This document shows positions 34,633 to 62,483 of a stretch of DNA of 64,000 nucleotides, one piece after another. Each line of letters opens with the position of its first letter. Positions within the stretch are counted from its first letter, which is position 1. Source of the DNA: a bacterium (GTDB taxonomy: Bacteria; Elusimicrobiota; Elusimicrobia; Elusimicrobiales; UBA9959); contig JAJZPF010000005.1 in assembly GCA_021811315.1 (NCBI GenBank), positions 5,543 through 69,542 on the forward strand, read 5' to 3'. Position numbers and translations under genes: made by a program. The notes under the pieces were generated by a model. That model was not told the origin of the DNA and did not search any database. It was given only the letters and a program-made list of their open reading frames with translations.

Positions 34633-34700
34633 TCCCGCGGAAGCCCGTCAGAACTCCCGGTAAAGGGCTTTTTCCGCCGGTTCCCCCGGCCTTCTACGGT

Positions 34701-35618: not shown

Positions 35619-35631
35619 AAGAACAGTCGCG

Positions 35632-37191: not shown

Positions 37192-37260
37192 GCGCAGCGG
37201 TAAAGCAATTTTACCATAACGAAGGATTCCCTGGATTTTACCGGATCGGCGCGCCGGCGG

Positions 37261-41830: not shown

Positions 41831-41853
41831 GGACCCGGGCGGCGCCCGCTGTT

Positions 41854-45531: not shown

Positions 45532-46683
45532 ATGAAGAAACGGGACTGCTGCGAGATAATACTTAACCACGCCTGCGACCTGGGCTGCGCCTTCTGCTCT
45601 CAGGCCGACTTCGACCCTTCCGCCCTGATGAAGCCGGGCGAGGCGGTGCGGCATATCTACCGGGCCAAAAAAGAAGGCTTCAGCCGCCTTGGCTTCTCCG
45701 GCGGCGAAGCGCTGCTGCGCCGGGACCTGCCGCAGCTTGTGAAAGCCGCGCGGGAAGTCGGCTTCAAAGCGGTGCGCCTCCAGACCAACGGCCTGCGCCT
45801 CGCCTCGATGGCGGCCGCGGAAAAACTGGTTCGGGCCGGCCTCACCGTCTGCAAATTCACTTTCGCAAGCCATATCCCCAAGGTGCACGACCGCCTCGTC
45901 GGGAAGCCTGAAGCCTTCAAAAAAAGCCTGGCCGGGCTCTCGAACATGCTGAAACTTAAAGCGGCCGTCGGGGTGAACCTGCTGGTCACCAAGGCTACTT
46001 ACCGGGCCCTCCCGGAAACGCTGAAGTTCTTCATGGCTAAAGGCGTTTCGAATTTCGTGCTTATCTACCCGATACATACAGGGGCCATGGCCCGCTCCCC
46101 GGCGCTGCGGATCAGCCTTCCGGCGGCAGCGCCTTATATCGCCAAAGCCCTGCGCCTCGCCGCCGCTTCCGGCCTTGGCCGCGAGGTAAAGGCGCTGAAC
46201 GTCCCGCCCTGCCTGCTACCGGGCTTCGAGAACATGGCCTCGGGCCTTTACCGCTTCAATACCGTGGTGGTTGCCGCCGACGGAGAGGCTCGCGACCTCG
46301 ATTCCTCGGTGGCCGCGGCCAGGCGGCAGGGGCCGCCCTGCGCGCGCTGCTTCTTTAAAAAGACCTGCCGCGGCGTCGACCATAACTACCTGGCAATTTT
46401 CGGCTGGAAGGGTATTTCGCCCGTCAAAAGAAAACCCGGCCCCGCCCGCCTGGCCTCCGGCCCGTTCTTTACGAACAGCGAGAAATGCTTCCTGGAACTC
46501 CTGCGCGGCGGAAAAGCGCGCGCAACTGCCGAACTCCTGCGGGCGGCCAAAAGCGTACCGCTCTGCTATGATTGCTCCGATGGTTCGAATGTAATGACCA
46601 CGGGGACGGCGCTGATAAAAAAAGGGCTGGTGACCCGCGCTTTGCGCGGCGGAATTTATTTTTGGAGCCTTAAGCATGCTTGA
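45532..46683 (+). CDS. HxsC-related radical SAM protein with C-terminal extension
   Basis: CDLGCAFC, SGGEA, QTNG, VPPCLL...CARCFFKKTCRG, tail with CYDC. Confidence 0.82.
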   Translation: MKKRDCCEIILNHACDLGCAFCSQADFDPSALMKPGEAVRHIYRAKKEGFSRLGFSGGEALLRRDLPQLVKAAREVGFKAVRLQTNGLRLASMAAAEKLVRAGLTVCKFTFASHIPKVHDRLVGKPEAFKKSLAGLSNMLKLKAAVGVNLLVTKATYRALPETLKFFMAKGVSNFVLIYPIHTGAMARSPALRISLPAAAPYIAKALRLAAASGLGREVKALNVPPCLLPGFENMASGLYRFNTVVVAADGEARDLDSSVAAARRQGPPCARCFFKKTCRGVDHNYLAIFGWKGISPVKRKPGPARLASGPFFTNSEKCFLELLRGGKARATAELLRAAKSVPLCYDCSDGSNVMTTGTALIKKGLVTRALRGGIYFWSLKHA

Positions 46684-47977
46684 AGAACTCCTCCGGGCCG
46701 CCGGTGAAAGCGGCCTTGAACTGGACGTGGACCGGCGCGCCCGGGAATTTAAAATCGCGTTTAAACCCGGCGCGGCCCCGGGCAAAGCGCGCCCCGTAGT
46801 TTATCCGCTCCTGGCCGCGCTGGAGGATAATTTCCTGGTAACGGTAAGCGGGGCGCCGGCCTGCCTGATGCCCGACGCCTTCGAGCATTTTAGCTGGCCG
46901 CTGGGGGCGAAGGGCCCTTTCAGGCGCGTTAAAGCCTGCCGCCTCTGCGCCCTCAGCGGGCGCTGCCCCGGGGTGAACCTGGCCTGGACCAAGGCAGCCG
47001 GGCTTTTAAACCCGGTGCTTCCGGCCCCGGCTGAACTCGTGATAGAACTGAACAAGAACTGCAATTTGGCCTGCAGGGCCTGCTTCGGACGCGGCGGCGA
47101 GGAACTCCCTCTGAAAACTGCGGAGAAAGCCCTGCGCGAGGCCGCCGCGCTGGGCGTGAAAAGCGCGCGCTTCACCGGCGGCGAGCCGCTGCTATACCCC
47201 GGCCTTGAAAAATTGCTGCGCCTCGCGCGAAAGCTGGGATTTTACACGCTGCTGAACACCAACGCCGTATTGTTCTCCCCGGCCGTCGCCCGCCGCCTCA
47301 AAGGGCTCGTCGACAACGCGCTGGTCTCGCTGCCCGGCGTGGATGAAGCGGGGCACGCGGCCGGCTCCGGGATGGCCGGGCAGTTCGGCCGGAAGACGGC
47401 GGCAATAAAGCGGCTGCGCTCTTCGGGAGTAAAAGTTTTAAGGGCAGGCACGGTCGTTTCAAAGCCGCTTTTAAACGATTTCAGCCGCTGGCATAAAGCC
47501 GTACGCCGGCTCGGCTTCGACATCTGGGAACTTTACAGGCCGATGATGACCGGCAAGGCCCTGGCCGCCGCCGCGGAATTCAAGATTTCCAGGAACGATC
47601 TTATAAACCTGGCGAAAAGAACAGCGGCCCTGGAACCAGGGCGGCCCAGGACCGTACTTGCCAACCCCGTACCGTACTGCGCAATTCCGGCGGCGGCCAG
47701 GCCCTTCGCCCTCGGGGCCCGCTTCGACGACGGCTGGACCAGGCTGGTGCTGGACGCTTCCGGGGTTTACAAACCCAGTTATCCCTCGGCGCAATTCCTC
47801 GGCAAAACGCTGGCCGGCGCCTGGGCGCACCCTTTCCTTAAAAAGACGCGGGCGGCGGCCTGGCTCCCGGCGAAGTGCCGCCGCTGCGGCATGCTTTCAG
47901 CCTGCCTTGGCGGCAGCCGCTTCCAGGCCGAAGCCGCCGGCGATATTTTCGGCGCCGACCCGTGGATGGCAGGATGA
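46676..47977 (+). CDS. Radical SAM/SPASM protein with extra N-terminal Cys domain
   Basis: APACLM..CRLCALSGRCPG, then CNLACRAC, TGGEP, NTN, CRRCGMLSACLGGSR. Confidence 0.85.
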   Translation: MLEELLRAAGESGLELDVDRRAREFKIAFKPGAAPGKARPVVYPLLAALEDNFLVTVSGAPACLMPDAFEHFSWPLGAKGPFRRVKACRLCALSGRCPGVNLAWTKAAGLLNPVLPAPAELVIELNKNCNLACRACFGRGGEELPLKTAEKALREAAALGVKSARFTGGEPLLYPGLEKLLRLARKLGFYTLLNTNAVLFSPAVARRLKGLVDNALVSLPGVDEAGHAAGSGMAGQFGRKTAAIKRLRSSGVKVLRAGTVVSKPLLNDFSRWHKAVRRLGFDIWELYRPMMTGKALAAAAEFKISRNDLINLAKRTAALEPGRPRTVLANPVPYCAIPAAARPFALGARFDDGWTRLVLDASGVYKPSYPSAQFLGKTLAGAWAHPFLKKTRAAAWLPAKCRRCGMLSACLGGSRFQAEAAGDIFGADPWMAG

Positions 47978-48693
47978 AAATATTTTTCCTGCGCTGCGAC
48001 GACGTAACGAAACCCGATAAGGCTTTCCTGCGTATTTACGGACCGCTCAGGGCTGCCGGGCTGCCGGTTTCCTGCGCCGTTATCCCCGCCCGGGCCGGGC
48101 AGGCGCTGGCCGCCTTCTTCCGCGCCGAAACCGCCGCCGGCGCCCGCCTCGAAGCCTTGCAGCACGGCCTCAGCCACGCCGAACATTCCGGCAACAGGTA
48201 CCTCAAGCAGGAATTCGGCCCTTCGCGCTCTTATAAAGAGCAGCGGGCCGATATAGCCGCTGGAAAGAAGCTGATGAAAAAGCTGTTCGGGAAAATTTCA
48301 AAGCCGGTTTTTGTGCCGCCGTTCCACATTTACAATTCGGACACGCTTAAAGCCCTGGCAGCGCTCGGATTCAAGGCGGTCTCCGCCAGCCGGCGGCTGA
48401 AGGAGCCAATGCCGCGGGGCCTGGCTTTCCTGGGCACCAGGGTTACGGTAAACGAATATGACCTGGAACTAAAGCCCCGCCCGCTTTTTTTGAGCCGGTT
48501 GAAATCACGGACCCTGGCGGCCATAAAAGAGGGCGGCGCCCCCTCCGGCATCTATTTCCACCACGACGATATCAGGGGGAAGGACTTTGAAATTTTCTCG
48601 GGGTATATCTCTTTCCTGAAAGAGCTGGAAAACCGCGGGCTGGCCCGCTTTGTCCCGGCTTCCGAACTTATTAAAAAACCCTCTCGATCTTAA
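47974..48693 (+). CDS. Polysaccharide deacetylase-like (NodB/DUF2334-type) protein
   Basis: LRCDD, AVIP, QHGLSH, EFG, FVPPF, YFHH; ATGA overlap. Confidence 0.78.
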   Translation: MKIFFLRCDDVTKPDKAFLRIYGPLRAAGLPVSCAVIPARAGQALAAFFRAETAAGARLEALQHGLSHAEHSGNRYLKQEFGPSRSYKEQRADIAAGKKLMKKLFGKISKPVFVPPFHIYNSDTLKALAALGFKAVSASRRLKEPMPRGLAFLGTRVTVNEYDLELKPRPLFLSRLKSRTLAAIKEGGAPSGIYFHHDDIRGKDFEIFSGYISFLKELENRGLARFVPASELIKKPSRS

Positions 48694-49636
48694 AGCGCTG
48701 GCAGCAGCGGGCGCAGCCCTGCGGCGGCCCGGCCTTGACCAGCCGGCGCTTGACCTTCAGCACAGCCGCCCGGTCAAAGTCTTTGGCCCGGCCCGCCGCC
48801 GCGCCGTAGAGAACACAGGTCCGTACGCTCCCGTCGGGCTCCACGTTAACGGTTGAAAGCAGCCCGGGGCAGGAGCCGGCGGGCTTCAGCAGCCCGTTAT
48901 AATAGCGCTCCAACTGCGCGGGCGTAAAATCCGGCCGCAGCTCGAAGCGGGTTTTAAAAGCCCCGCGCAGCGCTTTTATTTTCTTTATCGAGGCCGCAAA
49001 CGCGCGCGCATCCAGGCGGTAGCCGTCCAGCGCCGGGGTAATTATTTCGGACGGGGAAAGCCCGGCGCGCGCGGCCTCCGCCTTTTTCACGAACTGCAGA
49101 TGCTCGAAGACGGCCCTGTCGGCGCCGGCGCGGGCCGCGTCGAGGTAAACGGCCGGCAGCAAGGCCGCGTTAGCGGCGTTAACGACGCAGTTGGTTATTA
49201 TCTCCGTTCCGGGCCTTTTAAAGTCCGCCGCCGTTTTAAGATTTGCCAGCAGTTTTTTATGCGCGCCCCTCACGCGCAGGAGGCGGTCGTGCGCGGCGGC
49301 GGGGCCGTGCAGCGAAAAAATAATATAGGCCGGCCCTAGGGCCAGCAGCTTTTTTATTTTAGCGGCGTCCAGCGCCAGGCCGTTGGTATTGACCCCCCAA
49401 TCGAAGCCGCGCGCGGACGCGTACGCCAGTATTCCGAAAATATCCTTTCGCAGAAAAGGCTCTCCCCCGCTGAAGTAGAAATGCGTGCCTGCCGGGAAGC
49501 GGCGCATGAAGGCCTTGATCTCCGCCTCCTTCATCTCCGGCCCCCGCCTGTTAAGGCGGCCCGTCTTTCCCAGGTAGCAGAAAGCGCAGGCCGCGCCGCA
49601 GCGCCAGGTAAGTTCCATCATCACGGTTTCTTTCAT
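48671..49636 (-). CDS. Radical SAM/twitch protein (start reassigned to MKETV)
   Basis: CGAACAFC, SGGEP, NTNG, C..VEPDGSVRTC..CARCC; ATGA overlap with upstream glycosyltransferase. Confidence 0.85.
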   Translation of the reverse strand: MKETVMMELTWRCGAACAFCYLGKTGRLNRRGPEMKEAEIKAFMRRFPAGTHFYFSGGEPFLRKDIFGILAYASARGFDWGVNTNGLALDAAKIKKLLALGPAYIIFSLHGPAAAHDRLLRVRGAHKKLLANLKTAADFKRPGTEIITNCVVNAANAALLPAVYLDAARAGADRAVFEHLQFVKKAEAARAGLSPSEIITPALDGYRLDARAFAASIKKIKALRGAFKTRFELRPDFTPAQLERYYNGLLKPAGSCPGLLSTVNVEPDGSVRTCVLYGAAAGRAKDFDRAAVLKVKRRLVKAGPPQGCARCCQRFKIERVF

Positions 49637-50781
49637 AGGCCGCATATGATCCGCGCCGACTTTTGCGCGCCGCGGAACCAGGAGGGTTTTACGCGTTTCG
49701 AGATCCTGACCGGCTTCCCCAGCCGAACCCTTACCGCGGCAGCGATCTTCTCCGGGGTAAGGTCCGCCGGCAGGAGCAGAGCCGCGCCGGCCAGGTCCCT
49801 CATCAGCCAGGCGCGGGCCAGCTGGTCGGAATGCTCGCGCATTTTTGAGCCGCAGTAGGGGGCCAGCACCATTTTTTTCCGCAAAGCCAGCATTTCGTAA
49901 ACGGAGCCGCCCGCCGTAGAAAGGCAAACGGCGGCCCCGGACATGAGGTCCTGCAGGCCGGCCGAGCTCCCTATTACCTCGGCCTTTCCTCCGCCGGAAG
50001 CCGCCAGCCGCCGAAAATAGGCCAGCCGCCGGGGCGGCGTGGCCGGCCCCGCGACAAGCCTGAAAGGGACGTCGGAAATGGAAGCCGCCCCGATAGCGGC
50101 CTCAAAAAAAAGGTCGGAAGTGGAACCGCCGCCGCGCGTGACCAGCACGAAATCGTTTGTTTTAACCCGCTTAACTACGGGCTTGCCGGGGTAAAGGTAG
50201 CCGGTAAAGACGATCTTGCGGCGCAGTTCCCGGAACACTGAAAGAAAGGCGGGCGCGGTTATGCGCCTCTCCAGGCTTACGGCTTTTGCCATGTATGCGA
50301 GGTCCGCGCCTTCAGGGCTGTGGACCAGGAGCTTATCGTAGCGGGCGCAGACCCCGAGCAGCTCTTCAAGGCCGCGCTCCGGGGCCGTAAAATAGGGCAT
50401 AGGGACGCTTGAAATCTTCTTCGCGCCGCAGGCCGAAGCCGCCTCGAGGAGAGGGAGCGCTTCCGGAAGGCACTCGGCCCTGCCGAAAGGAAAGAACTCG
50501 GTCACCAGCGCCGAAGGCCGGAACCGCCGCAGCGTAAGGGCGAGGCGGCGGCCCGAAGCCGCGGAGGGCGCCGCCGGGAGCCGCACTACCCGCCCGTATT
50601 TGCTGAAAAGGTTATACGGATAAATATACGGGCCCCGCAGAAAGATCAAACTGCGGCTGCCGCGGGATCCTTTGATCTCCGCCAGCAGCCGCAGCAAGTG
50701 TACCGCGTGACCGATATCCCCGGAGGGACTATGGAGGTAAAAAACAAGTCTTTCCCGCGCCGCTGATTCAATAGGAACCAT
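49633..50781 (-). CDS. GT-B fold glycosyltransferase (GT28/MurG C-terminal-like)
   Basis: GDIGH, EFFPFGR, FTGY, VTRGGG, STAGG..YE, DQ..RA. Confidence 0.75.
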   Translation of the reverse strand: MVPIESAARERLVFYLHSPSGDIGHAVHLLRLLAEIKGSRGSRSLIFLRGPYIYPYNLFSKYGRVVRLPAAPSAASGRRLALTLRRFRPSALVTEFFPFGRAECLPEALPLLEAASACGAKKISSVPMPYFTAPERGLEELLGVCARYDKLLVHSPEGADLAYMAKAVSLERRITAPAFLSVFRELRRKIVFTGYLYPGKPVVKRVKTNDFVLVTRGGGSTSDLFFEAAIGAASISDVPFRLVAGPATPPRRLAYFRRLAASGGGKAEVIGSSAGLQDLMSGAAVCLSTAGGSVYEMLALRKKMVLAPYCGSKMREHSDQLARAWLMRDLAGAALLLPADLTPEKIAAAVRVRLGKPVRISKRVKPSWFRGAQKSARIICGL

Positions 50782-51094
50782 GGCTGCCGTGGCTGCCGTG
50801 GGAACCGTGGCTGCCGTGGGAACCGTGGCTGCCGTGAGAACCGTGGCTGCCGTGGGAGGCGTGCGAACCGTGGCTGCCGTGCGAACCGTGGCTGCCGTGG
50901 CTCTGGTGGCTTACGTGGGAGCTGCTGGTGAAGTAATTAGAGTGAACCTGCGCCGCGGCCTGCTCGACCATTACCGTACCGAGTATGCCGAGGGCCAGGC
51001 CGGTCTTCACGATATCCGAGTCCAGCATCTTGCCTTCCTCGCTGCTGAGGAACATGCGGATGTTCTTTTTAAGTTTCGAGGTTTTCTTTTTCAT
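50768..51094 (-). CDS. hxsA: His-Xaa-Ser repeat precursor peptide (HxsA-like), 108 aa
   Basis: Basic leader, FLSSEEG, hydrophobic segment, then 16 tandem HxS (HVS, HQS, 4xHGS, HAS, 9xHGS) and terminal Tyr; two genes downstream of hxsB. Confidence 0.88.
   Translation of the reverse strand: MKKKTSKLKKNIRMFLSSEEGKMLDSDIVKTGLALGILGTVMVEQAAAQVHSNYFTSSSHVSHQSHGSHGSHGSHGSHASHGSHGSHGSHGSHGSHGSHGSHGSHGSY
50774..50917 (-). repeat. Coding 9-bp tandem repeat (partial 18-bp higher order) encoding HxS units
   Basis: Plus strand alternates gctgccgtg and (g/c/a)gaaccgtg units. Confidence 0.95.
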
Positions 51095-51172: not shown

Positions 51173-52306
51173 CTATTCGCCCTTCTTGCCCATCAGCTTC
51201 CGCACCTTTTCATTGACCTGCTTGGTGGTGGTTTCTTCCTGCTTGCGGAGCCGCTCCTCCTCCGCTTTCTTCCTCGCCGCCTCCGCCAGTGATTCCTTCA
51301 CTTCTTCAGGCGTGACCCCGAAAAAACCGCCGCTTTTTTTCATTTGCTCTTTGCGGTAGGCGCAATATTTCTGGGACATGTCGGCAAGGATGGGCGCGCA
51401 GGGCCCGGGGCTGTTCTGCAGCAGCGCGGCGCAGTTCGGCTTGTAAGCGTCCGGGCACTTGGCCGGGTTGCCCGTGAACAAGCCTGTCCACAGGTCATGG
51501 TCGGCCAGGCAGGCGGCGTCGGAGCCGCAGACGTCCGCGGTGATAGCCATCAGCCTTTCAGCCGGAGGATAAGCCTGCGGCATTTTTTTCTTGATATAGG
51601 AGAAAGCGCTGTCAAAGCCCTTGGAGACCGCCGTGCAGAATTCAGCGGGGTTGGCGAACAGGGGGGGCTGGCCCTCGCTGGGCTGCTCGCTGACAAAGTC
51701 AAGGCAGTTCCGCTGGTCTTTGGCTTTGCCGGCGGCATAGGCCTTGAAGAGGAAAAGCACGGTCTTCTTCCTGCATAGGTCCATCGGGGTCATAAAGGCG
51801 CCGATCTTGGAATCTACTTTCGGATTTTCGAACGAGGGGACGCCGAACTTGGCCACGTCCTTTACATTTTCCCCGGGAAGCTCGCTGCAGATCGAAGAGT
51901 CCTGGCGCGAAGCGGCCGTGCAGGCGTAATAATCCCAGATATGGTTATAGATATCCTGGGTCTTGATCGGCTCGATGGCCAGGTTGCGGCCGGTGAAGTA
52001 GCCCCAGGTCTTGCCGTGGTTCTCCATTATCTCCTTGGGGGACCCGCCCTCGCAGGCGCCCTTGAGGTCCAGCGCCGCCGCGGGCAGCGCCAGTTGCTCA
52101 AAGCTGCCGGTAGCCTGCGCCGAGGTAGGCATGGGGCTGGGAGGTATATAATCGGTAGAGCCGGGAGGCAGCGCCACTCCCTGCTGCTCGGCCTGGGGCT
52201 GCGTGGCCGGCTGGGGCATACCGACCTGGTTTTTAGCCGCAAAATATTTCAGCCCCACCAAGGCCGCCGCCAAGATGACAACAACGCCTATGATTATTTT
52301 TTTCAT
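51173..52306 (-). CDS. Membrane-anchored/exported Cys-rich hypothetical protein
   Basis: N-terminal TM, Pro/Gln linker, 12 Cys, charged helical C-terminus; lies between hxsB and hxsA. Confidence 0.75.
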   Translation of the reverse strand: MKKIIIGVVVILAAALVGLKYFAAKNQVGMPQPATQPQAEQQGVALPPGSTDYIPPSPMPTSAQATGSFEQLALPAAALDLKGACEGGSPKEIMENHGKTWGYFTGRNLAIEPIKTQDIYNHIWDYYACTAASRQDSSICSELPGENVKDVAKFGVPSFENPKVDSKIGAFMTPMDLCRKKTVLFLFKAYAAGKAKDQRNCLDFVSEQPSEGQPPLFANPAEFCTAVSKGFDSAFSYIKKKMPQAYPPAERLMAITADVCGSDAACLADHDLWTGLFTGNPAKCPDAYKPNCAALLQNSPGPCAPILADMSQKYCAYRKEQMKKSGGFFGVTPEEVKESLAEAARKKAEEERLRKQEETTTKQVNEKVRKLMGKKGE

Positions 52307-52446: not shown

Positions 52447-53853
52447 TTAACTGCGGGCTATCCACTTCTCGAATATATCGAAGACGGGTTTCTCCGACAA
52501 CTTCTCAAAGATATAGTCAAAAACACCGATGAGCGTCCGGCAGCGCCCGTTCGAAGGCATGGAACCCCAGAAGCCGCCCTGAGCCGCCTGGTTATAGGCC
52601 GGGCAGGCGCCGCAGAACGGCTTGTAGGCGCAGCGCGCGCACACGGGCTGCAGGTCAAGGCTTGAGGAGATGGCGCAGGCCTTGACCGGCTCGGAGCTTA
52701 TAACCCCGGCATAGGCGTCCTTCAAAACGCTTCCAAGGCGGAAGGAGCGGTCCCCGCCGCGGGCGAGCATGCGGCCTTCGTCACAGGTATATACCCCCCC
52801 GTCGCAGTCGTAGGCCAGCTGGCCCAGGCCGGCCCCGCAGGGGCAGCGCAGGTCGACATACCTGTTATCCTGGGTGCCGATGATCTTTTTTACGGCCAGG
52901 AAAGCGGTTTTTTCTTTTATGGGCACGCCGCGCCGGTTAAGCTCCAGCACGCGGTCCAGCCCCTCCCGGTAAAATCCCAGGAATTCTTCCGGGGTATAGC
53001 CTATCTCGTCCCAGCGCTTCAGCGCGTCGCCGATGGGAGAAAGCGGCTTGAGGAAAACGTAGGGCAGCTTAAGGCGGGCGTACTCGTCAACTATTTCCCG
53101 GGCCCGCCCGAGCGAGGCCCTCGTAACCGTCAGCAGCGCGCTGGGCCCGCCGGGGGGCTCGGCCCCGCGGCGCTCCTGGAAATATTTTATCCACTTCGCC
53201 GCGACGGCGTGGGAATCGCCGCCGGAGAATTTACGGTTCGCGTTGTGCAGGTCCGCGGGCCCGTCCAGGGAGGTGCAGAGCGAGATATCGTTCGCGACTA
53301 TGAAATCGGCCTTCTTTTCATCCATCAGGCTGAAATTGGAAACCAGCGCCAGGGCCAGCCCCTTGCCGGTCTTTTCCGCTTTTTTGCGCGCGTAAATAGA
53401 GGCTTCCTTCAGCGCGGCCCAGTTCACCAGCGGCTCGCCGCCCTGGAACTCCAGAGTGAGCCCGCTCACGGGCGCGCTGAAAGCGAAATCCACGGCGCGG
53501 CGGGCCGTGGCCGGGCTCATGTTCCTACCGGCGCCGGAGCCGGCCTGGCAATAGACGCAGCTATGATTGCATTTCTCGGTCAGCACCATTATATGCAGGC
53601 CCGGGCCAAGGCGCAGATATTCGTTGGAATCCCTCCAGTCGGTAAAAATAGAGTCGAAATCAAGGCGCGAGCGCAGAAGCCCTGCCCTCCGCAGCGCTTC
53701 AAAAGCCGGCCCGCTCTTCAGTTTGCCCGCGGCGAAGAGCTTGAACTCGGCGGGCTTAAGCAAAGCCCAGCCGCCCAAATCGCCGGTAACCAGCACCCCC
53801 GCCTTAAGGCGGCGCCAGTTAAAATAAGCGGGCAGGTCCAGCTGTTTTTTCAT
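52447..53853 (-). CDS. hxsB: His-Xaa-Ser system radical SAM/SPASM maturase HxsB (start reassigned to MKKQLD)
   Basis: LHIMVLTEKCNHSCVYCQA, EFQGGEPL, TSLDGP..LHN.NR, VDLRCPCGAG.GQLAY..DG.VYTCDEGRM, C..C.YKPFCG.CP. Confidence 0.88.
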   Translation of the reverse strand: MKKQLDLPAYFNWRRLKAGVLVTGDLGGWALLKPAEFKLFAAGKLKSGPAFEALRRAGLLRSRLDFDSIFTDWRDSNEYLRLGPGLHIMVLTEKCNHSCVYCQAGSGAGRNMSPATARRAVDFAFSAPVSGLTLEFQGGEPLVNWAALKEASIYARKKAEKTGKGLALALVSNFSLMDEKKADFIVANDISLCTSLDGPADLHNANRKFSGGDSHAVAAKWIKYFQERRGAEPPGGPSALLTVTRASLGRAREIVDEYARLKLPYVFLKPLSPIGDALKRWDEIGYTPEEFLGFYREGLDRVLELNRRGVPIKEKTAFLAVKKIIGTQDNRYVDLRCPCGAGLGQLAYDCDGGVYTCDEGRMLARGGDRSFRLGSVLKDAYAGVISSEPVKACAISSSLDLQPVCARCAYKPFCGACPAYNQAAQGGFWGSMPSNGRCRTLIGVFDYIFEKLSEKPVFDIFEKWIARS

Positions 53854-55483: not shown

Positions 55484-57574
55484 ATGAGACATTTTCTTCT
55501 GATGATCCCGGCGCTTTTTTCAGCGCTCCTTTGCCCGCCCCGCGCCCTTGCGGCCGGGCCGGACGCCGGGATGCGGGATTATTACTGCGACGACGTGAAA
55601 AAGCCTTTCTTCGCCGAGGCTCCGGGAGAAAAAGGCGGGTTCGTGCTCCGGAGGACGGGCGCCCTGCCCGACGCTTTCATGATGCCCAAGCCGGCTGGAA
55701 CGAAGCGCGTGTTCGTAGTAGGAGAATCGGTAGCCGCGCTGCTCGGGCCGGGTACGGCGTTGTCCTCCGGGAGGATAAAAAAAGAGGGCTTGCTCAGGAA
55801 CATGCTCGGGAAAAGCGCCGCCGGAGACAACTCCGGGATAGAAATAATCAACTGCGGCATGGGCGGCTATGAAAGCTACAGGATCTACGGCGTGCTGGAA
55901 GAGGCGCTTAAATACAGCCCTGACCTGGTGGTGGTGCTCAGCGGCAACAACGACACGCAGGAAGAGTCCTGCCCCGGGCTCGAGTGCGAGCTGCGCCGGC
56001 GCAAGTTCCGCCTCTTCGAAAAATATTTCTCCCTAAGCGGCGCTCCCCGGGAGGCCGTTAAGAAAGCGTCGCTGAAAATGCATGAGGCCATGCTGCTGAA
56101 AATGGGCGCGGCCGCGAAGAAAGCCGCCGTCCCCATAGTGTTCTGCACCCTGCCCGCGGCCGTCAGGGATATGCCGCCGCGCCAGCCCGCGCCCCTCGAG
56201 AACAAGTTTTTCGCGGCCGGCTACAGGCTTTTTTACGCGAAAAAGACCGCCGGGGCGCTTGAGAAATTCAAGCTCGCGCTCGCCGCCGGCCCGCGGGAGC
56301 CTTTTTCCAGCTTTTACGCGGCCAAAGCCCTGGAGCAGCTGGGCCGTGAAAAAGAGGCCGCCGCCTATTACGCCAACGCGCTTAATTTCGACCCGGCAAT
56401 GTCGCGGGCCGGCCGGGAGCGCAACGACCTGATACGCCGCGCGGCCTCCGTGAAAGGCGCCTGCGTGGCCGACCTGGAAAAGCTTTTCCAGGGGATTTCC
56501 CCGGGCGGGCTTCCCGGGTTCGAGGACTTTACCGACGGGATGCACTGGAACTTCCCCCACGACAAGGAAGTCTGGGAGGAGATCTTCCGCTCCGCCGGCC
56601 GCTGCGGGATAAAGGGCTTTGAAAAATTCACCGCCGGGCCCCCCTCCCAATGGGCAGAAACCTCCAGCGGGACCGCCCTTAAACGGCTCGGCTACGCCTT
56701 CTCCTGGCTGGACGAAAGGGACTTCAACGAAGCGAGCCTGGCGGAACTGGCGCGCATTAAAAAGGAGCAGCCGGAACTGCTGGAAAAGGCGGGCTCAGCC
56801 CCGGCGCAGCTTGAAAAGCTGCTCATCAACAACCTTTGGTCCGCCGACAGGATCAAGCGTTTAAAGGATATCTACCCCTTCTTCCTGGCGCACCTGGCCG
56901 AAACGGAAAGGCGCGCTGGCAATTACGCCAAGGCGCTTTCACTGAGCGATAAAGCCCTGGCGCTGAAGCCGGGACACCCGCTGCTGAGGCTGGGCAGGGT
57001 CCAGGTCGTAGCCGATATGGGCGGCAAAGCGGAGGACGAATTTATGGCCCTTTCCCGGGAGCGCTCGCTCAACGGCAAGGCCGCGGCGCTCGCGGCCGCC
57101 TACGGCTTCACGAACGCCGCGGCCCCGGCGCCCGGCCGCGGGGCTTCTTCCGGCCCGGAGCCGGCCTCCAAGGAGAACGTCGAGTTATCCAAAAGATTAT
57201 CCGATCAGGCGGTCGACAAGATCTTCGCCAAGGACTTCAAGGCCGCCGAAGAACTTTCCGGCAAGGCCGTGGAGAAGAACCCTTTCAACTCCGAGGCCCT
57301 GATGAGCCTGTGTTATCTGCGCCGGAAGGACGGGCGTACGCTGCTGGCGCTCGAGGCCTGCAAAAGAGCCTCCGCCTCCGTTTATCAGGACCCGGCCAAC
57401 CAGATCCCTTCGCTGGAAATCCTGTCCTGCGACGCCGCTTTCGAAAGCTACAAGATGCTCAATGAGCTCGGCCGCGGACCCGAGGCGGCCGCCGTGCTCG
57501 AGCAATGCGTAAAAAGGGCCCCCGCCTCCTGGCCGGGACTGGACGCGGCCAAAGCCGCTTTAAAAGCGCGCTGA
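55484..57574 (+). CDS. Exported SGNH/GDSL-like hydrolase with TPR repeats
   Basis: Signal peptide; VVGES, NCGMGGY, SGNND, DGMH blocks; TPR-like helices. Confidence 0.72.
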   Translation: MRHFLLMIPALFSALLCPPRALAAGPDAGMRDYYCDDVKKPFFAEAPGEKGGFVLRRTGALPDAFMMPKPAGTKRVFVVGESVAALLGPGTALSSGRIKKEGLLRNMLGKSAAGDNSGIEIINCGMGGYESYRIYGVLEEALKYSPDLVVVLSGNNDTQEESCPGLECELRRRKFRLFEKYFSLSGAPREAVKKASLKMHEAMLLKMGAAAKKAAVPIVFCTLPAAVRDMPPRQPAPLENKFFAAGYRLFYAKKTAGALEKFKLALAAGPREPFSSFYAAKALEQLGREKEAAAYYANALNFDPAMSRAGRERNDLIRRAASVKGACVADLEKLFQGISPGGLPGFEDFTDGMHWNFPHDKEVWEEIFRSAGRCGIKGFEKFTAGPPSQWAETSSGTALKRLGYAFSWLDERDFNEASLAELARIKKEQPELLEKAGSAPAQLEKLLINNLWSADRIKRLKDIYPFFLAHLAETERRAGNYAKALSLSDKALALKPGHPLLRLGRVQVVADMGGKAEDEFMALSRERSLNGKAAALAAAYGFTNAAAPAPGRGASSGPEPASKENVELSKRLSDQAVDKIFAKDFKAAEELSGKAVEKNPFNSEALMSLCYLRRKDGRTLLALEACKRASASVYQDPANQIPSLEILSCDAAFESYKMLNELGRGPEAAAVLEQCVKRAPASWPGLDAAKAALKAR

Positions 57575-57613
57575 AGCCCGGCCCCCGCGGTTCAATTGTT
57601 ATATAATTACCCA

Positions 57614-60139
57614 ATGGAAAGCATAGTCTTTTTCGGAAAAGGCGGCATAGGCAAGAGCACCATAGCCGCCAATATCTCCGTGCTGTTCGCCGCGAAGGGC
57701 AGGAAGGTCCTTCACGTCGGCTGCGACCCGAAGATGGATTCCACGCTTTCGCTCATGGGGCGCCGCATACGCCCTTTCAACGACCAGGGAGGCTCCGACG
57801 AGGAAGCCCTGCGCCGGTCGCTCCACCGCTCGATCAAAGGCATAGACTGCATCGAGGCCGGCGGCCCCCAGGCCGGGGTCGGCTGCGCCGGCGCCGGCAT
57901 AGGCGCGATGCTCGACGCGATCAAGGACTCCGCGCTGATAGAGAAAGAAGGCTACGACACGGTGGTCTTCGACGTCCTCGGCGACGTGGTCTGCGGCGGT
58001 TTCGCCGCGCCGCTGCGCCGCGGTTTCGCGAGCAAAGCCATCCTCGTCGTCTCCGAGGAGCTCCTCTCCCTTTACGCCGCGAACAATCTTATCTCGATGG
58101 TGAACAATTACGCCAGGAACGGGGTGTTCCTGGCAGGCCTGGCCGTCAACGCCAAGGACCAGGCCGCCGTCAGGCTGGCCCACGATTTCGCGCGCGCCGC
58201 GAATACGCGGGTACTGGGCGTGATACCGAGGGACCCGGCGGTCACAAGGGCGGAAAAAGCCCGCAAGCCGGTGGTCGCGCTCGAGCCGCGCAGCGAAGCG
58301 GCCAAAAGCCTGGCGCGCCTCGCCGCGGAGATAGCCGCGGCCGGCATCCCCTCCTCGCCGCCGCGGATGCTGGGCCCGGCCGAGTTCGAGGCTTTCATGG
58401 ACGACAGGCCGGTCAAGCCGGAAGGGAAGAGCGCCGGGCCCGCCGCCAGCCCCGCCGTCAAAAAAAACAAAGTCGCCTCTTCGGCCCTGCTCGAGAGGTC
58501 CGGCTTCAGCATGACCGGCGTGGCCGGGGGACAGGTGGTCTGCTCCTGGAAAGGCGGCGGCACGACTTTCAGGCTTTTCATCGCCCCGGAGTCCGACTCC
58601 AGGCCGGGCATGTCCGCCATAGGCGACTGGGCTTTCTGCTTCCTGCCGGGAGAGGAGCCCCCCTCCGACATTTCCCGCGAAGGCTTCCACGCCGCGCTGA
58701 AAGAGATCTCCACCCTGCGCTTCGACGATTTCATCTCCGCCTTCAGCGGCAAGCTGGATTTTTACGAGAACGTGGATTCCTTCGGAAAAGGCTCCTCTCA
58801 CCCGCTCATGCCGGAAGGAGACAAGCCGGAGGAGCCCTACATAGGCTTCGGGCAGTGGCAGCGCTTTCTCTTTTCCGACAGTTCCGGCATCTGCGTGCCT
58901 CCGGGCTCGGTGATGGTGGAGCACGGCGATAACGAGTGCCGCTTCAGCAGCTGCTCCCAGACCCCGCTGAGCACTTTCCAGAAAATAGCGGGGCTCGCCA
59001 ACGATTCCACCCCCTCCCTCGCGCCGCTCCTCCCCAAGGAGGATCACATGATAGTCAATACCGATTTCCTTTACGAGGACGCCGTCAAAGGCGACGAGAA
59101 AAAGATAGCCGGCACCCTGGCGGCGGCGGCCGCGCGTACCGGCCCGGGCGGGCTGATCGAGTTTTACAGCGGCTGCGCCCCCCTCATCCTGGCCAGCGAC
59201 GTCGCCTCGTTCAGCGATAAGGTCGCCCGCGACCTGGGCGTGGAAGTTCTGCGGGAGAACTTCAACAGCTTTTACTCGCAAACCCCGGAGAAGGTGCGGG
59301 CCCGCTCCGCTTTCGTGGCGCGCAGGCTGGCCGCGCTCGGGCGCGTGAAGCCGGCGCAGGACGTGAACCTGATAAATTTCGGCAGCTCGCGCGAGCCGCT
59401 TACCGCCCTGCTGGCCGCCAAGGGCCTGGCCGTGAAGGACTGGGACACCGAGTTCTACAAAGATATCGCTTCCGCGCGGCTGCAGGTCCTGTCTTCCGCC
59501 GACCCGGTGCTGACCGGGGCTTTCGACAAGCTAGGGATAAAATGGACGGCCCCGGGCGCGCCCTACGGCTTCGCGGCCACGAAGGCCTGGCTGCGCGCGC
59601 TGTTCGCCGCCCTCGGCAGGAAAAGCCCCCCCGAAGGCTTCGGCCCCTCCAGGAAGGAGTCGGCCGCCCACGCCGCGGCGGCAAAAAAGCTTTCCCGCTT
59701 CGCCGCCGGCTTCGTGGCCTCGCCCGGGGAATTCGGCATGCTGGAAGGGACCTGGGCCGTCTCCGGAGTTCCGCTTATTTCTTTTCTTTCCGAGTCCGGC
59801 CTGGCCCTCAGGCTTTTCGTCCACGCCGCGGGTCCCGAAATAAAAGCCCTCGCCAGGACCGAAGCCGCCGCCCTCGCCGCCAAAACGGGGACGAAGCCGC
59901 GGCTGGCTTTCTTCGACAGCCCCGGCGCGCTTTTAAAGACGCTGGCCGCCGACCGCGCCCTCCGCCTGGTCTATTCGGACATCCCCCTCGACCCGCGGCT
60001 GTCCGCGGCAGGGAAAAACTCTTTTTCGGTGGCGGTCTGCGAGCCCGGCTACGAGGGCGCCCTGGAAACCCTGCGCAGGCTGGCGCAGCTTTGCGAATGG
60101 GATTTCAATGAAAGATATTACTTCACAAAAAGCGTTTGA
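57614..60139 (+). CDS. Nitrogenase-like Fe protein (NifH/BchL/CfbC family) fused to a nitrogenase component-1-like domain
   Basis: GKGGIGKST, GCDPK, EAGGP.AGVGCAG, DVLGDVVCGGF; C-half HGDNEC, SGC.P, PYGFAATKAWL, GYEGA. Confidence 0.88.
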   Translation: MESIVFFGKGGIGKSTIAANISVLFAAKGRKVLHVGCDPKMDSTLSLMGRRIRPFNDQGGSDEEALRRSLHRSIKGIDCIEAGGPQAGVGCAGAGIGAMLDAIKDSALIEKEGYDTVVFDVLGDVVCGGFAAPLRRGFASKAILVVSEELLSLYAANNLISMVNNYARNGVFLAGLAVNAKDQAAVRLAHDFARAANTRVLGVIPRDPAVTRAEKARKPVVALEPRSEAAKSLARLAAEIAAAGIPSSPPRMLGPAEFEAFMDDRPVKPEGKSAGPAASPAVKKNKVASSALLERSGFSMTGVAGGQVVCSWKGGGTTFRLFIAPESDSRPGMSAIGDWAFCFLPGEEPPSDISREGFHAALKEISTLRFDDFISAFSGKLDFYENVDSFGKGSSHPLMPEGDKPEEPYIGFGQWQRFLFSDSSGICVPPGSVMVEHGDNECRFSSCSQTPLSTFQKIAGLANDSTPSLAPLLPKEDHMIVNTDFLYEDAVKGDEKKIAGTLAAAAARTGPGGLIEFYSGCAPLILASDVASFSDKVARDLGVEVLRENFNSFYSQTPEKVRARSAFVARRLAALGRVKPAQDVNLINFGSSREPLTALLAAKGLAVKDWDTEFYKDIASARLQVLSSADPVLTGAFDKLGIKWTAPGAPYGFAATKAWLRALFAALGRKSPPEGFGPSRKESAAHAAAAKKLSRFAAGFVASPGEFGMLEGTWAVSGVPLISFLSESGLALRLFVHAAGPEIKALARTEAAALAAKTGTKPRLAFFDSPGALLKTLAADRALRLVYSDIPLDPRLSAAGKNSFSVAVCEPGYEGALETLRRLAQLCEWDFNERYYFTKSV

Positions 60140-61421
60140 AAAAACCTACCAGCTTCCTTACCTGCTGGGCGTCTTCCTGAGCCTCAACGCCGTCAGCGAC
60201 GCCTGCCTCATGGTGGACGGCGCGAACTGCGTCATGGTCAAAGCCGACCTGATAGCCGGCAACCACGACCTCTTCTCCACTCTTTTATCCGAATCCGGCC
60301 GGCACCGCATCATCTGCACGATGTGGACGCCCGTAAATCCCCCCAAGAACCCGGAGAAAAAGCTCGGCGCGATGCTCAACAGCGTGGCAGGCTCCGGGCA
60401 GTTCGGCGCGGTGCTCCTGACCGGCCTCCCTTACTGCTGGCTGGCCGGGATGGACTATGACGGCGTAGCGCGGGCCGTCTCCTCCAAAGCGCCGGTGGCG
60501 GCCATACCGGCCAAGTCGATGGATTCGGACTGGCTGGAAGGCTATGACCTGACCCTGGAGGCGCTCGCCCGGGCCATACCGGAGAGGAAGCCCGGGAAAC
60601 GCGCCAAAAATAAAGTCGCGCTGGTCGGCTATATGTTCGACAGGAACGAAAGCGACCATGCGGCTAACTTGAAAGAACTTACCCGGCTGCTGAGAATTTC
60701 CGGGCTCGACGTAGTTTCTATCTGGCCTTCCGGCGGAACCGTCGCCGAGCTGGCGCGCGTGTCCGAAGCCTCCCTTATCGTTTCCCTGCCCTACGGCAGA
60801 AAAGCCGCCAAAACCCTGGCCCGTAAATACGGCTGCGAACTCCTCGAGACCGGCCTGCCTATGGGGCTGAAAGGGACCTCCTCCTGGCTGGCCGCGGTCC
60901 GCCGCGCGGCGGGCCTGCCGGGCGCCCTGCCCCGGGAGATCCTGGTGGAAGAGCGGGAAGCCGCCAGGACCATAGCCCCGGCGCTTCGCGCCCTCCTCCA
61001 CAAAAAGCTGATGTTCGCCGGGGACCCTTACCTTTATTCCGCTTTCGCTTCTTTCGCGGCCGAGCTGTGCGCGACCCTGCCGCTGGTCTTCCTGGACTCC
61101 TCCAGGCGCCCGCTTGGCGCCGGGGCGGCGGAGGGGAGCGTTCTCTTCGCGCCGTCCACCGAGGACGCCAAAGCCGCCAGGAAAGCCCTTTCACGCTATC
61201 AAGCGCCGAACCTTGCCGTCGTCAATTCTTTCGCGCTTACCGAAGGTTTCGCGGACGGGCTCCCTTTCGTGGAATTCGGCTTTCCGTCTTACGGGCACCA
61301 CTGCCTTCTGGACGAGCCCTATTTCGGTTTCAGCGGCGCCCGGGCCCTGGCTTCGCGCATGCTGAACTCGCTGCAGACAAGGAGCAAGGCCAGCTCCTCG
61401 GGAGCGGACCGCTCGGCGTAA
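60108..61421 (+). CDS. Nitrogenase component-1 family subunit (NifD/K, BchN/B, CfbD-like paralog)
   Basis: VDGANC, DWLEGY, ELTRLL..SGL, PMGLKGTSSWL, GFPSY, PYFGFSGA; 32-nt overlap with the upstream fusion gene. Confidence 0.85.
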   Translation: MKDITSQKAFEKTYQLPYLLGVFLSLNAVSDACLMVDGANCVMVKADLIAGNHDLFSTLLSESGRHRIICTMWTPVNPPKNPEKKLGAMLNSVAGSGQFGAVLLTGLPYCWLAGMDYDGVARAVSSKAPVAAIPAKSMDSDWLEGYDLTLEALARAIPERKPGKRAKNKVALVGYMFDRNESDHAANLKELTRLLRISGLDVVSIWPSGGTVAELARVSEASLIVSLPYGRKAAKTLARKYGCELLETGLPMGLKGTSSWLAAVRRAAGLPGALPREILVEEREAARTIAPALRALLHKKLMFAGDPYLYSAFASFAAELCATLPLVFLDSSRRPLGAGAAEGSVLFAPSTEDAKAARKALSRYQAPNLAVVNSFALTEGFADGLPFVEFGFPSYGHHCLLDEPYFGFSGARALASRMLNSLQTRSKASSSGADRSA

Positions 61422-61448: not shown

Positions 61449-62483
61449 TTGTCGATCAAAAAAACCATATTGCTGGTTTCCGCCCTGGCGCTGGCCGCCG
61501 GAGGCTGCTCCAGGCGCGGCAGCACCGCGACTTTCACGCAAAAAGCCTATATAATGAACGTGTCCGCGCAGTTCCGGGCCTACGGCCCGCACACGCCGGG
61601 GGCGAAGGAGCTCGCCGACGAGATCTTCGCGGAATGGGAGCGGATATCCGGAGAGCTGAGCTATAGCGACGCCTACAGCCTTACTACGGTGGTGAATAAA
61701 AAAGCCGGGAAAGAATGGGCCCCCGTCACCGACGAGTTCATGCGCCTGCTCCTGCTCGCCCTGGACTACAACCGCCTGACCGACGGCGCTTTCGACATAA
61801 CTTTCGCGCCGCTCTGGCCGCTCTGGAAAGAGGCGGCCTCGAGCAAGACCCTGCCGGCGAAAGCGGATATCGAGAAGGCCCTGCGGGACATAGGCTCGAA
61901 ATACATCCAGGTCGACGCGGCGAAAAAACTGGTGAGGTTTTCCCGGCCCGTCGAGATAAACCTGGGCGGCCTGCTGCGCGGCTATTCTTTCGAGCGCGCC
62001 TACCAGATCCTCAAAGAGCGGAACCCGCCCTACCCGGTGCAGCTCAGGCTCGGCGGGAACACGCTGGTCTACGGGAAAAGGCCGTGGAAATACCGGGTTC
62101 CGGACCCGATGAACAAAGGAAAGAACCTGGGGATGTTCGCCTTCGAGGACGGGATGATAATTTCCTCCTCCGGGCGCGACGTTTTCGTCGAGATAGAGGG
62201 AAAGCTTTATTCCCATATCCTGGACCTGCGGACCGGGTATCCGATAAAGGATTTCTCGATGCTTACCATCTATTATCCCGGCATCGAGGACGAGAATTTC
62301 CTGGCCTCCGCGGCGCTGGCGGTGATGGGCAGGGAAAAAGCGTTCAAGCTTCTGAGCGGAGTAAAAGGCACGGCGGCCGTCTGGATAGACGGCGAAGGAA
62401 AAATGCACCGCCAGTTCAACGAAGCCAGCAAAGCGAAGTGGGAAGAGGACAAGAGTTCTTTTAACAGGATGCTGGGCAGATAA
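61449..62483 (+). CDS. apbE: FAD:protein FMN transferase (ApbE family) lipoprotein
   Basis: Lipobox AAGGC, TDGAFDIT..PL..LW, INLGG, SSG, YSHILD.RTGYP; TTG start. Confidence 0.85.
   Translation: MSIKKTILLVSALALAAGGCSRRGSTATFTQKAYIMNVSAQFRAYGPHTPGAKELADEIFAEWERISGELSYSDAYSLTTVVNKKAGKEWAPVTDEFMRLLLLALDYNRLTDGAFDITFAPLWPLWKEAASSKTLPAKADIEKALRDIGSKYIQVDAAKKLVRFSRPVEINLGGLLRGYSFERAYQILKERNPPYPVQLRLGGNTLVYGKRPWKYRVPDPMNKGKNLGMFAFEDGMIISSSGRDVFVEIEGKLYSHILDLRTGYPIKDFSMLTIYYPGIEDENFLASAALAVMGREKAFKLLSGVKGTAAVWIDGEGKMHRQFNEASKAKWEEDKSSFNRMLGR

Follow-up and report, generated by a model that had tools for sequence, protein, structure and literature searches.

A putative Group VI nitrogenase-like reductase with a fused Fe-protein domain beside His-Xaa-Ser peptide genes in an Elusimicrobia genome

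Introduction

Group VI is the sole major branch of the nitrogenase superfamily without any characterised member, according to a recent review (North and Shafaat 2026, PMC13474568), and because its organisms are uncultured, genomic clues are all there is to go on. Here we describe a locus of this kind, a fused NflH-NflD gene (NflHD) followed by a separate NflK gene, in a 64,000-nucleotide stretch of an Elusimicrobiota genome (assembly GCA_021811315.1, contig JAJZPF010000005.1, positions 5,543 to 69,542 of the forward strand), which we refer to as the window. Meheust et al. (2020, 10.1101/765248) defined Group VI by NifH paralogs that have the ATP motif and the two cluster cysteines, accompanied by highly diverged nifD/nifK-like partners without P-cluster motifs and by no cofactor assembly genes. 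They reported up to 13 neighbouring radical SAM genes and predicted a role in tetrapyrrole reduction. Both sources place these nitrogen fixation-like (NFL) systems, composed of NflH, NflD and NflK, in Elusimicrobia, Myxococcales and Gracilibacteria. The review describes them as wholly uncharacterised, with at most four of the six P-cluster cysteines, and states that about one third of Group VI genomes show NflH and NflD only.

In their main texts, neither Meheust et al. nor the review applies the words 'fused' or 'fusion' to Group VI genes, assigns alpha and beta types to the partners, describes the loss of a docking arginine, or mentions Hxs or His-Xaa-Ser, peptides, SPASM or RiPP. Fusions of NifH to a NifE-like domain in Archaea, Firmicutes and Deltaproteobacteria were noted as 'data not shown' by Dos Santos et al. 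(2012, PMC3464626). With the family described in 2020 and the fusion architecture noted, for another clade, in 2012, the window is an added example of a known uncharacterised kind, and the novelty implied by a preliminary description of the locus, made from its sequence, was set too high. Newly noted here, and not found in print by our searches, are the alpha/beta assignment, the clade-specific loss of the docking arginine, an orphan module, the absence of HemB and HemC from carriers and the association with His-Xaa-Ser genes.

Two characterised systems lend themselves to comparison. CfbC gives the best curated score for the NifH-type domain of the window, and CfbCD itself works with a simple [4Fe-4S] cluster between its subunits, for which NifB is not required. 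However, CfbD is a single subunit type, whereas distinct alpha and beta types are encoded here, in a bacterium without methanogenesis context. DPOR (BchLNB) and COR (BchXYZ) likewise carry out an ATP-driven reduction with a cluster that has fewer than four cysteine ligands, and the Asp of BchB aligns with C41 of NflK. The DPOR cluster is held by three ligands from BchN and the Asp from BchB, while that of the window would have two ligands from the alpha-type and one or two from the beta-type subunit.

The genes next to the reductase recall a third system, the His-Xaa-Ser (HXS) system (Haft and Basu 2011; Li et al. 2026). In E. coli, HxsABCD is an antiphage defence that blocks the entry of phage DNA; HxsA, which acts in the periplasm, is processed by HxsB and HxsC, an SHRSS motif thereby changing by +8 Da (Li et al. 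2026). The same work assigns 99.7% of HXS systems to Pseudomonadota and, in its accessible part, mentions no nitrogenase-like gene. The window likewise contains HxsB and a His-Xaa-Ser-type repeat protein, both over their cut-offs, but its peptide is of the HxsA4 type, with 16 or more Ser-His-Gly repeats, and no HxsC over the cut-off accompanies it.

The locus offers a compact two-gene version of the enzyme, which should express easily, and a pair of congeners that differ in its presence at one chromosomal site. It also gives evidence that the published tetrapyrrole guess may be wrong, and a concrete alternative substrate in the form of a radical-SAM-modified His-Xaa-Ser repeat peptide.

Results and discussion

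The fusion protein and its partner

We lean towards reading the two genes as a Group VI reductase in which ATP would drive electron transfer to a bound organic substrate. The fusion gene (Table 1) lies in a frame that is open from TTG 57596 to 60139, encoding 847 residues without an internal stop, and 29 of the 38 aligned relatives begin at a Met matching the ATG at 57614. Residues are numbered throughout in the 847-residue frame (P0001) from TTG 57596, and 6 is to be subtracted for the ATG start. The NifH-type domain contains the P-loop GKGGIGKS, Switch II, C97 in GVGCAG and C133 in DVVCGGF, all four invariant across the 38 relatives, as well as CAGAG instead of CAGRG. Translation and alignment thus bear out the motifs listed for an 841-residue protein in the preliminary description, and the linker and component-1-like domain that it placed after the NifH domain are found as well. 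The intact motifs by themselves point to a putative ATP-driven reductase with a tethered Fe-protein domain.

The linker differs in length and sequence between relatives (alignment columns 290-345). It leads into a module of ~140 residues, with which the alpha-type protein begins in relatives whose genes are split (L008, L009, L013). Pfam matched none of 19 members of this module at E up to 10, a profile search of the PDB returned nothing below E 0.2, and an Atlas search gave no usable match; the module thus appears to be without detectable relatives outside its own family. A PqqD/RRE-like peptide-recognition identity found no match in these Pfam, PDB and Atlas searches, a profile-profile comparison against PqqD not being among them.

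The fusion of the NifH-type and alpha-type domains is real and conserved. A protein-collection search with the fusion protein returned at least 776 proteins at E up to 0.001 among 8000 candidates scored. The best 84 of these comprise 83 proteins of 793-889 residues and one 525-residue partial, all with source names of Elusimicrobia metagenome-assembled genomes (MAGs), and 81 of them align over 94% or more of the query (32-93% identity), which rules out the sequencing artefact that had been considered as a way to refute the architecture. Short contigs from two other studies (151-427 nt among those listed) match parts of the stretch with 0-5 differences, for example over 58238-58486 and 58638-58963, but they add little, since none spans the whole fusion. 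No RNA run was listed among those with matches to the stretch, and two RNA runs from the same study as the best-matching DNA run yielded no sequence on it.

To assign subunit types, we compared two profiles with the PDB, one for the C-terminal part of the fusion, built from 21 sequences with three unfused ones among them, and one for NflK (20 sequences). The former matched best to MarD chain A (9d9u_A/9fmg_A; E 6e-26 over 228 profile positions), both entries being identified as methylthio-alkane reductase (MAR) from the search listing alone, followed by the alpha chains NifE (E 1.6e-13) and NifD (E 2.3e-13). The NflK profile instead found the beta-type chains AnfK, NifK, BchB and NifN as its best matches (E ~5e-18; NifN E 5e-16). 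From this division we assigned the architecture as NflH-NflD(alpha) plus NflK(beta).

The NflK gene overlaps the fusion gene by 32 nt. Its description as an overlapping second component-1 gene holds (Table 1), whereas its supposed scarcity of cysteines does not: NflK has seven, of which C41 and C399 are nearly invariant, next to an invariant H398. C70 is Cys in 16 of 20 relatives, and an aligned Cys also occurs in three other uncharacterised NFL beta partners.

Candidate cluster ligands were located by alignment with NifD, NifK, NifE, NifN, BchN, BchB, BchY and BchZ references, all over their NCBIfam cut-offs, and with a CfbD reference labelled only via its position beside CfbC. Columns are named after what we take to be the nitrogenase ligand residue numbers. 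In the alpha-type domain, the invariant C448 (HGDxEC) sits in the alpha-Cys88 column and the invariant C527 (GC[SA]P) in the alpha-Cys154 column, while the alpha-Cys62 column holds no Cys. NflK places C41 in the beta-Cys95 column, where BchB has its Asp ligand, which serves as a check on the alignment; its beta-Cys70 column is a gap and its beta-Cys153 column a Pro. P-cluster cysteines are therefore kept at three of six positions (alpha-88, alpha-154, beta-95). Both ligands of the iron-molybdenum cofactor (FeMo-co) are absent: none of 21 family members has Cys in the Cys275 column, where 17 show a gap and four have Val, Ala or Pro, and the His442 column holds hydrophobic or other residues and no His. 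The simplest reading is probably a single [4Fe-4S] cluster with two alpha and one or two beta ligands.

Placement in Group VI

All curated NCBIfam models score far under their cut-offs for both proteins. The NifH-type domain reached its best score with the CfbC model NF033200 (217.8 bits against a cut-off of 402), followed by the nifH model TIGR01287 (213.7 against 394.35, with labelled NifH references at 448-471), BchL (168.5 against 345) and BchX (152 against 331). For NflK, the best match was BchN (63.9 bits against 420), with BchB at 46.2 against 490.

Trees of the NifH-type domain were built with references from five named genomes, comprising NifH, CfbC, BchL and BchX proteins over their cut-offs and other NFL proteins. 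FastTree, applied to 144 rows, grouped the window with fused Elusimicrobia proteins in a starred clade of 19 rows; unfused Elusimicrobia, Myxococcales and Deltaproteobacteria sequences join these in a wider clade of 45 rows (support 93). For 51 chosen rows we used IQ-TREE under a mixture model, and there the fused clade (12 rows, 99*) is nested within one of 23 rows (83). The NifH (99*), BchL, BchX, CfbC and other NFL rows stand opposite the latter, and the Group IV rows and one Myxococcales row (L013) also lie outside it. Elusimicrobia bacterium GWF2_62_30 (L006) has two fused copies, and both belong to the fused clade in FastTree, as does the one entered in IQ-TREE. This genome is named among the new group VI loci by Meheust et al. 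(10.1101/765248), and our Group VI assignment runs through it and not through their reference set.

No NifB over the curated cut-off was detected in five genomes searched, four of them 100% complete. The source genome, which is 63% complete, has one NifH-like locus, and its PF00148 matches are solely the fusion gene and NflK. The absence of nifB, nifE and nifN first remarked for the window thus extends to these wider searches. The locus shares with Group VI its phylum and clade, with a placement outside Groups I-V together with Elusimicrobia and Myxococcales, the ATP motifs, both Fe-protein cluster cysteines, no more than four of the six P-cluster cysteines, the lack of FeMo-co ligands and of NifB, and a neighbourhood rich in radical SAM genes. 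We conclude that the pair is, as judged from its sequence, a fused member of the Group VI NFL family and not a nitrogenase, CfbCD or DPOR/COR. The low curated scores and the positions outside NifH, CfbC, BchL and BchX agree with its original designation as a two-gene nitrogenase-like system that is not a nitrogenase.

The fusion protein is matched in 51 of 401 sampled genomes of the phylum, among them 8/20 in the genus of the window and 16/47 in its family. A second family, with matches in 20/47 genomes, holds both unfused and fused forms. Searching 1.84 billion proteins with the C-terminal-part profile, we obtained 531 representative clusters at E up to 1e-30. Among the best 150 of these, 32 were counted as fused because a NifH P-loop is present; the other 118 are mostly 560-730 residues long, with the N-terminal module and no NifH domain. 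Gene calls in the relatives follow a longest-open-reading-frame rule, which at times picked an antisense frame.

A second fusion clade has the same architecture, in that a NifH domain is fused to a NifE/NifD-like alpha-type domain (700-800 residues in total) and a separate beta-type gene follows. Its hosts are Methanosarcina, Methanoculleus, Methanomassiliicoccales, Clostridium tetanomorphum and Oscillospiraceae (loci L144, L148, L018, L032, L039, L048, L066 and L069), and it is separate in the trees (13 rows at 99* in FastTree, 7 rows at 93 in IQ-TREE). Unlike the window, these proteins keep CAGRG (7/7), have no 140-residue module and match NifE/NifD models far better. Its arrangement is the one that Dos Santos et al. 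(2012) had noted, and this clade, too, appears to be uncharacterised.

Loss of the docking arginine

In NifH, Arg100 serves docking. The residue after Cys-Ala-Gly is Ala, Val, Thr or Leu in 12/12 fused-clade rows and in all 38 aligned sequences. Arg occupies this position in 11/12 other Group VI rows, 6/6 NifH, 3/3 CfbC, 2/2 BchX, 7/7 other NFL and 7/7 second-fusion-clade sequences, while BchL has Tyr (2/2). The loss is therefore specific to the fused clade of the window; CAGAG is present as first described, but it is not a private oddity of this protein. Because other fusions retain the Arg, tethering alone fails to account for its loss, which suggests that the docking face may have been remodelled along with the strongly diverged alpha and beta partners.

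Proposed mechanism

From the observed domains, motifs, conserved ligand positions, family placement and gene linkage, we infer the electron transfer, the type of cluster and the stoichiometry as follows. The NifH-type domains of two fusion proteins would pair and share a [4Fe-4S] cluster through C97 and C133. Binding and hydrolysis of ATP would drive or gate the passage of an electron into a simple acceptor cluster, probably also [4Fe-4S], held between the alpha-type domain (C448, C527) and NflK (C41, probably C70), and the electron would then pass from this alpha/beta cluster to the bound organic substrate. The 45-residue linker would keep the donor tethered to its acceptor, so that the H2 dimer docks its own catalytic core, possibly serving the two halves alternately. 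The docking face would have been altered along with the tether, with the loss of the Arg100 equivalent.

The substrate is the least certain part of this model. The most likely target is an unsaturated or aromatic group produced by the radical SAM enzymes encoded nearby. The best candidate in the genome of the window is the Ser-His-Gly repeat peptide HxsA4 as modified by HxsB, which we put forward tentatively; a different product of the radical SAM or U32-type enzymes nearby is a possibility of the same tentative order.

Linkage to the His-Xaa-Ser genes

The HxsA4 and HxsB genes lie upstream of the fusion gene, 3.8 kb away (Table 1). HxsA4 consists of a leader and a hydrophobic segment followed by 16 His at three-residue spacing in Ser-His-Gly repeats. 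The open frame of HxsB extends to 54519, and the model match begins at residue 231. No HxsC over the cut-off is found in the window: the best NCBIfam match of the radical SAM genes at 45532..49927 is HxsC4, with 96.9 bits against 500, and HxsC reaches 70.9 against 268. HxsD-like proteins, scored in relatives and not in the window, reach 41.1 and 24.4 bits against a cut-off of 50. The order HxsB, Cys-rich protein, HxsA4 recurs in genomes G086, G156, G220 and G122.

In at least 12 of 18 fused-clade genomes, the contig with the fused gene also carries an HxsB over the cut-off no more than 18 kb away, and in at least 8 of 18 no more than 10 kb away, with distances computed by hand from the coordinates of the best 150 of 210 HxsB matches; among the matches listed, the remaining six have HxsB on other contigs. 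Ser-His-Gly repeat peptides with a common leader were found in 15 of 43 sources scanned, the curated HxsA4 model having been applied to the peptide of the window only.

Co-directional arrays comprising both gene sets occur in four lineages. G086 carries, in this order, NflHD, NflK, two genes, HxsB, an HxsD-like gene, the Cys-rich gene and HxsA4. In G220 the row reads NflK, NflHD, the annotated gene c9, a 67-residue open reading frame, HxsB, HxsD-like, Cys-rich gene and HxsA4, while G267 has HxsD-like, HxsB, HxsA4 and a radical SAM gene ahead of the reductase. In the Myxococcales record L009, HxsD-like, HxsB and two small genes precede separate NflH, NflD and NflK, which are followed by HxsA4. 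The beta-type gene lies 81 bp to 10 kb from HxsB in four of five further genomes, namely a Myxococcales genome, a Deltaproteobacteria MAG, an unclassified bacterium and another Elusimicrobia genome. The cassette in the window's genome is moreover flanked by two HxsB genes, as it is in G214: a second HxsB over the cut-off (G000:C27:78260-79657, L183) was found past the window end, 12.6 kb downstream of the reductase genes.

Several observations weigh against the proposed enzyme or against its link to the peptide. The fourth cluster ligand is uncertain, since C70 is Cys in only 16/20 relatives, and the type of cluster is at this point a guess. The secreted GDSL/TPR protein and ApbE, partners in the cassette, are not accounted for by a reductase model. 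Among 77 metagenome loci with the beta-type gene, only four have an HxsB-like gene in their 10-kb flanks (at least 472 bits on a private hidden Markov model, the next score being 88) and two a repeat peptide; for the 27 loci of at least 15 kb, the figures are two and two. HxsB is also commoner than the reductase, in at least 43/47 against 16/47 genomes of the family and at least 17/20 against 8/20 of the genus. In the window itself, reductase and Hxs genes are on opposite strands with the unrelated ygeW between them, and the related genomes that enter the linkage counts are non-independent samples. Finally, congener G122 (96% complete) has no match to the fusion protein and yet keeps HxsB (78% identical) and, in the window's order, the Cys-rich gene, the Ser-His-Gly peptide, a glycosyltransferase-like gene and three radical SAM genes; also present are ygeW and the M20 peptidase, between which GDSL/TPR, NflHD, NflK and ApbE are missing. 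The Hxs genes therefore do not need the reductase, and the four-gene cassette appears to be an optional unit beside an Hxs island that works without it.

Two further counts say little either way. None of 72 loci of other NifH-family types has HxsB nearby, but this is an unfair null, as those taxa mostly lack HxsB. Genome-wide, HxsB co-occurs with the reductase in at least 37/39 carriers (counted by hand), which is uninformative because HxsB is nearly universal in these families and the genomes are related. With PADLOC, four genes nearby gave only weak matches of a generic radical SAM type (pVip), and NflHD, NflK and HxsA4 gave none; our literature search found no paper coupling His-Xaa-Ser with nitrogenase.

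The link between the reductase and the Hxs genes is thus partial. For the modified peptide that had been suggested as a substrate, the proximity in the window and the arrays in four lineages speak in favour, while the 4/77 metagenome loci and G122 speak against. A further and rather doubtful reading makes the Group VI reductase the first member of the nitrogenase family with a ribosomal peptide as substrate: once HxsB-type radical SAM enzymes had modified the Ser-His-Gly repeats of HxsA4, the tethered enzyme would reduce the unsaturated His-derived group so formed, before export. If so, peptide maturation would join small-molecule conversion among the uses of nitrogenase-type ATP-driven reduction, and a periplasmic effector related to the HXS antiphage system would gain an optional, chemically distinct form. 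This would also tie the reductase to a system shown in E. coli to block the entry of phage DNA, with a putative defence role here.

Alternative functions

The published proposal for Group VI, a tetrapyrrole reductase that makes a novel cofactor by analogy with DPOR, COR and CfbCD, seems to us unlikely at this locus. Meheust et al. (10.1101/765248) based it on the position of Group VI beside Groups IV and V and on neighbouring B12-binding and HemN_C radical SAM genes. B12-type radical SAM genes do occur near the reductase and HemN-like ones in relatives, the cluster with its three conserved Cys positions resembles that of DPOR, and HemB and HemC are present in the genome of the window and in congener G214. 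However, neither turned up in three 100%-complete genomes whose fused genes are 65% or 48% identical to that of the window (G114, G180 and G220). With HemB and HemC in only one of four complete carriers, scavenging would need to be assumed; an endogenous tetrapyrrole pathway is not general among carriers, and the three complete genomes without it argue against the published idea. Furthermore, no pathway gene is among the conserved neighbours, and those radical SAM genes that receive a curated name here are peptide maturases (HxsB).

Because the alpha-type profile matches NifE about as well as NifD (E 1.6e-13 and 2.3e-13) and the beta-type profile matches NifN, we also considered a NifEN/NifH-like scaffold or maturase that, instead of reducing an organic substrate, builds or repairs an unusual iron-sulfur cofactor on which the many radical SAM enzymes nearby depend. 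Such a role would fit with the SufS-family cysteine desulfurases (family c14) present in 5 of 16 stitched extended regions. The odds are nevertheless poor: no NifB- or NifX-like partner was found, the radical SAM genes are present in congeners without the cassette, and no conserved cofactor ligand was seen beyond the inter-subunit site.

That MarD is the closest solved relative of the alpha-type domain (E 6e-26) raises the idea of a carbon-sulfur bond reductase of the MAR/ISR kind, serving sulfur acquisition. MAR, however, needs a complex cluster made by NifB/MarB (PMC13474568), and NifB is missing from the five genomes searched. The Cys275-type ligand is lacking, the NifH-type domain lies outside the Group IV rows in IQ-TREE, and no sulfur-assimilation neighbours were seen, which makes this function very improbable. 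A true, very divergent nitrogenase is close to refuted: the NifH, NifD and NifK folds are there, and a Group IV enzyme of another Elusimicrobia lineage is reported to fix N2 (10.1101/765248, PMC13474568), but the pair has three of six P-cluster cysteines, no FeMo-co ligands and a position outside the NifH clade (99*), with no NifB in five genomes and no NifE or NifN in the source genome (63% complete).

The cassette and its neighbourhood

The putative reductase genes form part of a closely packed plus-strand row of GDSL/TPR, fusion gene, NflK and ApbE (Table 1). Operon limits rest on gene spacing alone, because a scan for promoters and terminators returned no more sites than shuffled sequence.

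Table 1 Features of the window discussed in the text; residues follow the 847-residue frame
Feature	Position	Strand	Details
Two tandem U32-like gene pairs	40171..43552	+	weakly similar to UbiU, UbiV and TrhP; 8/27 sources
Three radical SAM genes	45532-46683; 46676-47977; 48671-49927	+; +; -	family in 13/27 and 20/42 sources
DUF2334/deacetylase-like gene	47875-48693	+	
HxsA4	50768..51094	-	108-residue peptide; NF038313, 91.2 bits against cut-off 55
Secreted Cys-rich protein	51173..52306	-	between HxsB and HxsA4, likewise in several relatives; no NCBIfam match
HxsB radical SAM/SPASM maturase	52447..53829	-	TIGR03978, 429.8 bits against cut-off 370
YgeW, knotted carbamoyltransferase	54125-55315		679 bits against cut-off 453
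Secreted GDSL-like/TPR protein	55484..57574	+	39 nt upstream of fusion gene
NflH-NflD fusion gene	57614..60139	+	841 residues from ATG; frame open from TTG 57596
NifH-type ATPase/[4Fe-4S] domain	57620..58360	+	residues 9-255; Fer4_NifH PF00142, E 3e-65 (Pfam)
Pro/Ala/Lys-rich linker	58361..58495	+	~45 residues, about residues 256-300
Orphan module	58496..58906	+	~140 residues; motifs GGQ..C.W, SDWA.CF.P and FGQW.RF conserved
Diverged alpha-type (NifD/NifE/MarD-like) component-1 domain	58907..60136	+	Oxidored_nitro, residues 438-697, E 1.5e-10 (Pfam)
NflK, beta-type (NifK/BchB/NifN-like) partner	60108..61421	+	437 residues; Oxidored_nitro, E 8e-38 (Pfam)
ApbE-family lipoprotein	61449..62483	+	27 nt downstream of NflK
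M20-type peptidase	62543-63733		flanks cassette opposite YgeW

Within the window's genus, the four genes are present or absent as a unit. The distance from YgeW to the M20 peptidase is 0.2-5 kb in four of five congeners without the cassette (L274-L277). In the fifth, G256 (L278), it is 7.8 kb and contains a 39%-identical GDSL/TPR-like gene and a radical SAM gene. The four congeners without the reductase other than G122 showed no match to NflHD, NflK or ApbE in the 16-19 kb around ygeW. The YgeW-M20 interval is therefore the site of a presence/absence polymorphism.

Gene content was compared in two sets, one of 27 sources (26 loci and the window) and one of a further 42, made up of the window and 41 metagenome loci at least 12 kb long. 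In the former, the fusion gene and NflK each occur in 20 of 27 and adjoin each other. Their neighbours include radical SAM families in 13, 6, 5, 5 and 4 sources, U32-like genes in 8, GDSL/TPR in 6 and ApbE in 2. The 42 further sources contain one radical SAM family in 20, a standalone NflH in 13 and a B12-type radical SAM gene in 10. Radical SAM genes are thus the commonest neighbours of the reductase genes. ApbE is not conserved beside them elsewhere; it and the GDSL/TPR protein are both exported proteins. Each of the U32-like pairs upstream consists of a larger gene and an overlapping smaller one, and UbiU, UbiV and TrhP, which they weakly resemble, are anaerobic hydroxylases.

The radical-SAM-rich island reaches far upstream, over 30767-38745, with B12-binding radical SAM genes at 30767-32626 and 37261-38745. 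This upstream region also contains a large membrane protein (35632-37191) and an amine-oxidase-type flavoprotein (38742-40067).

Unusual architectures were observed among the more distant search results. Proteins P0092-P0104, ~1010-1104 residues long (P0093, 636 residues), have precomputed Pfam assignments to NifH and to NB-ARC/AAA_16/STAND-type ATPase families, and all except P0093 also list a component-1 domain. Locus L123 contains a 1175-residue open frame (L123:742-4266) in which the NifH domain starts at residue 335.

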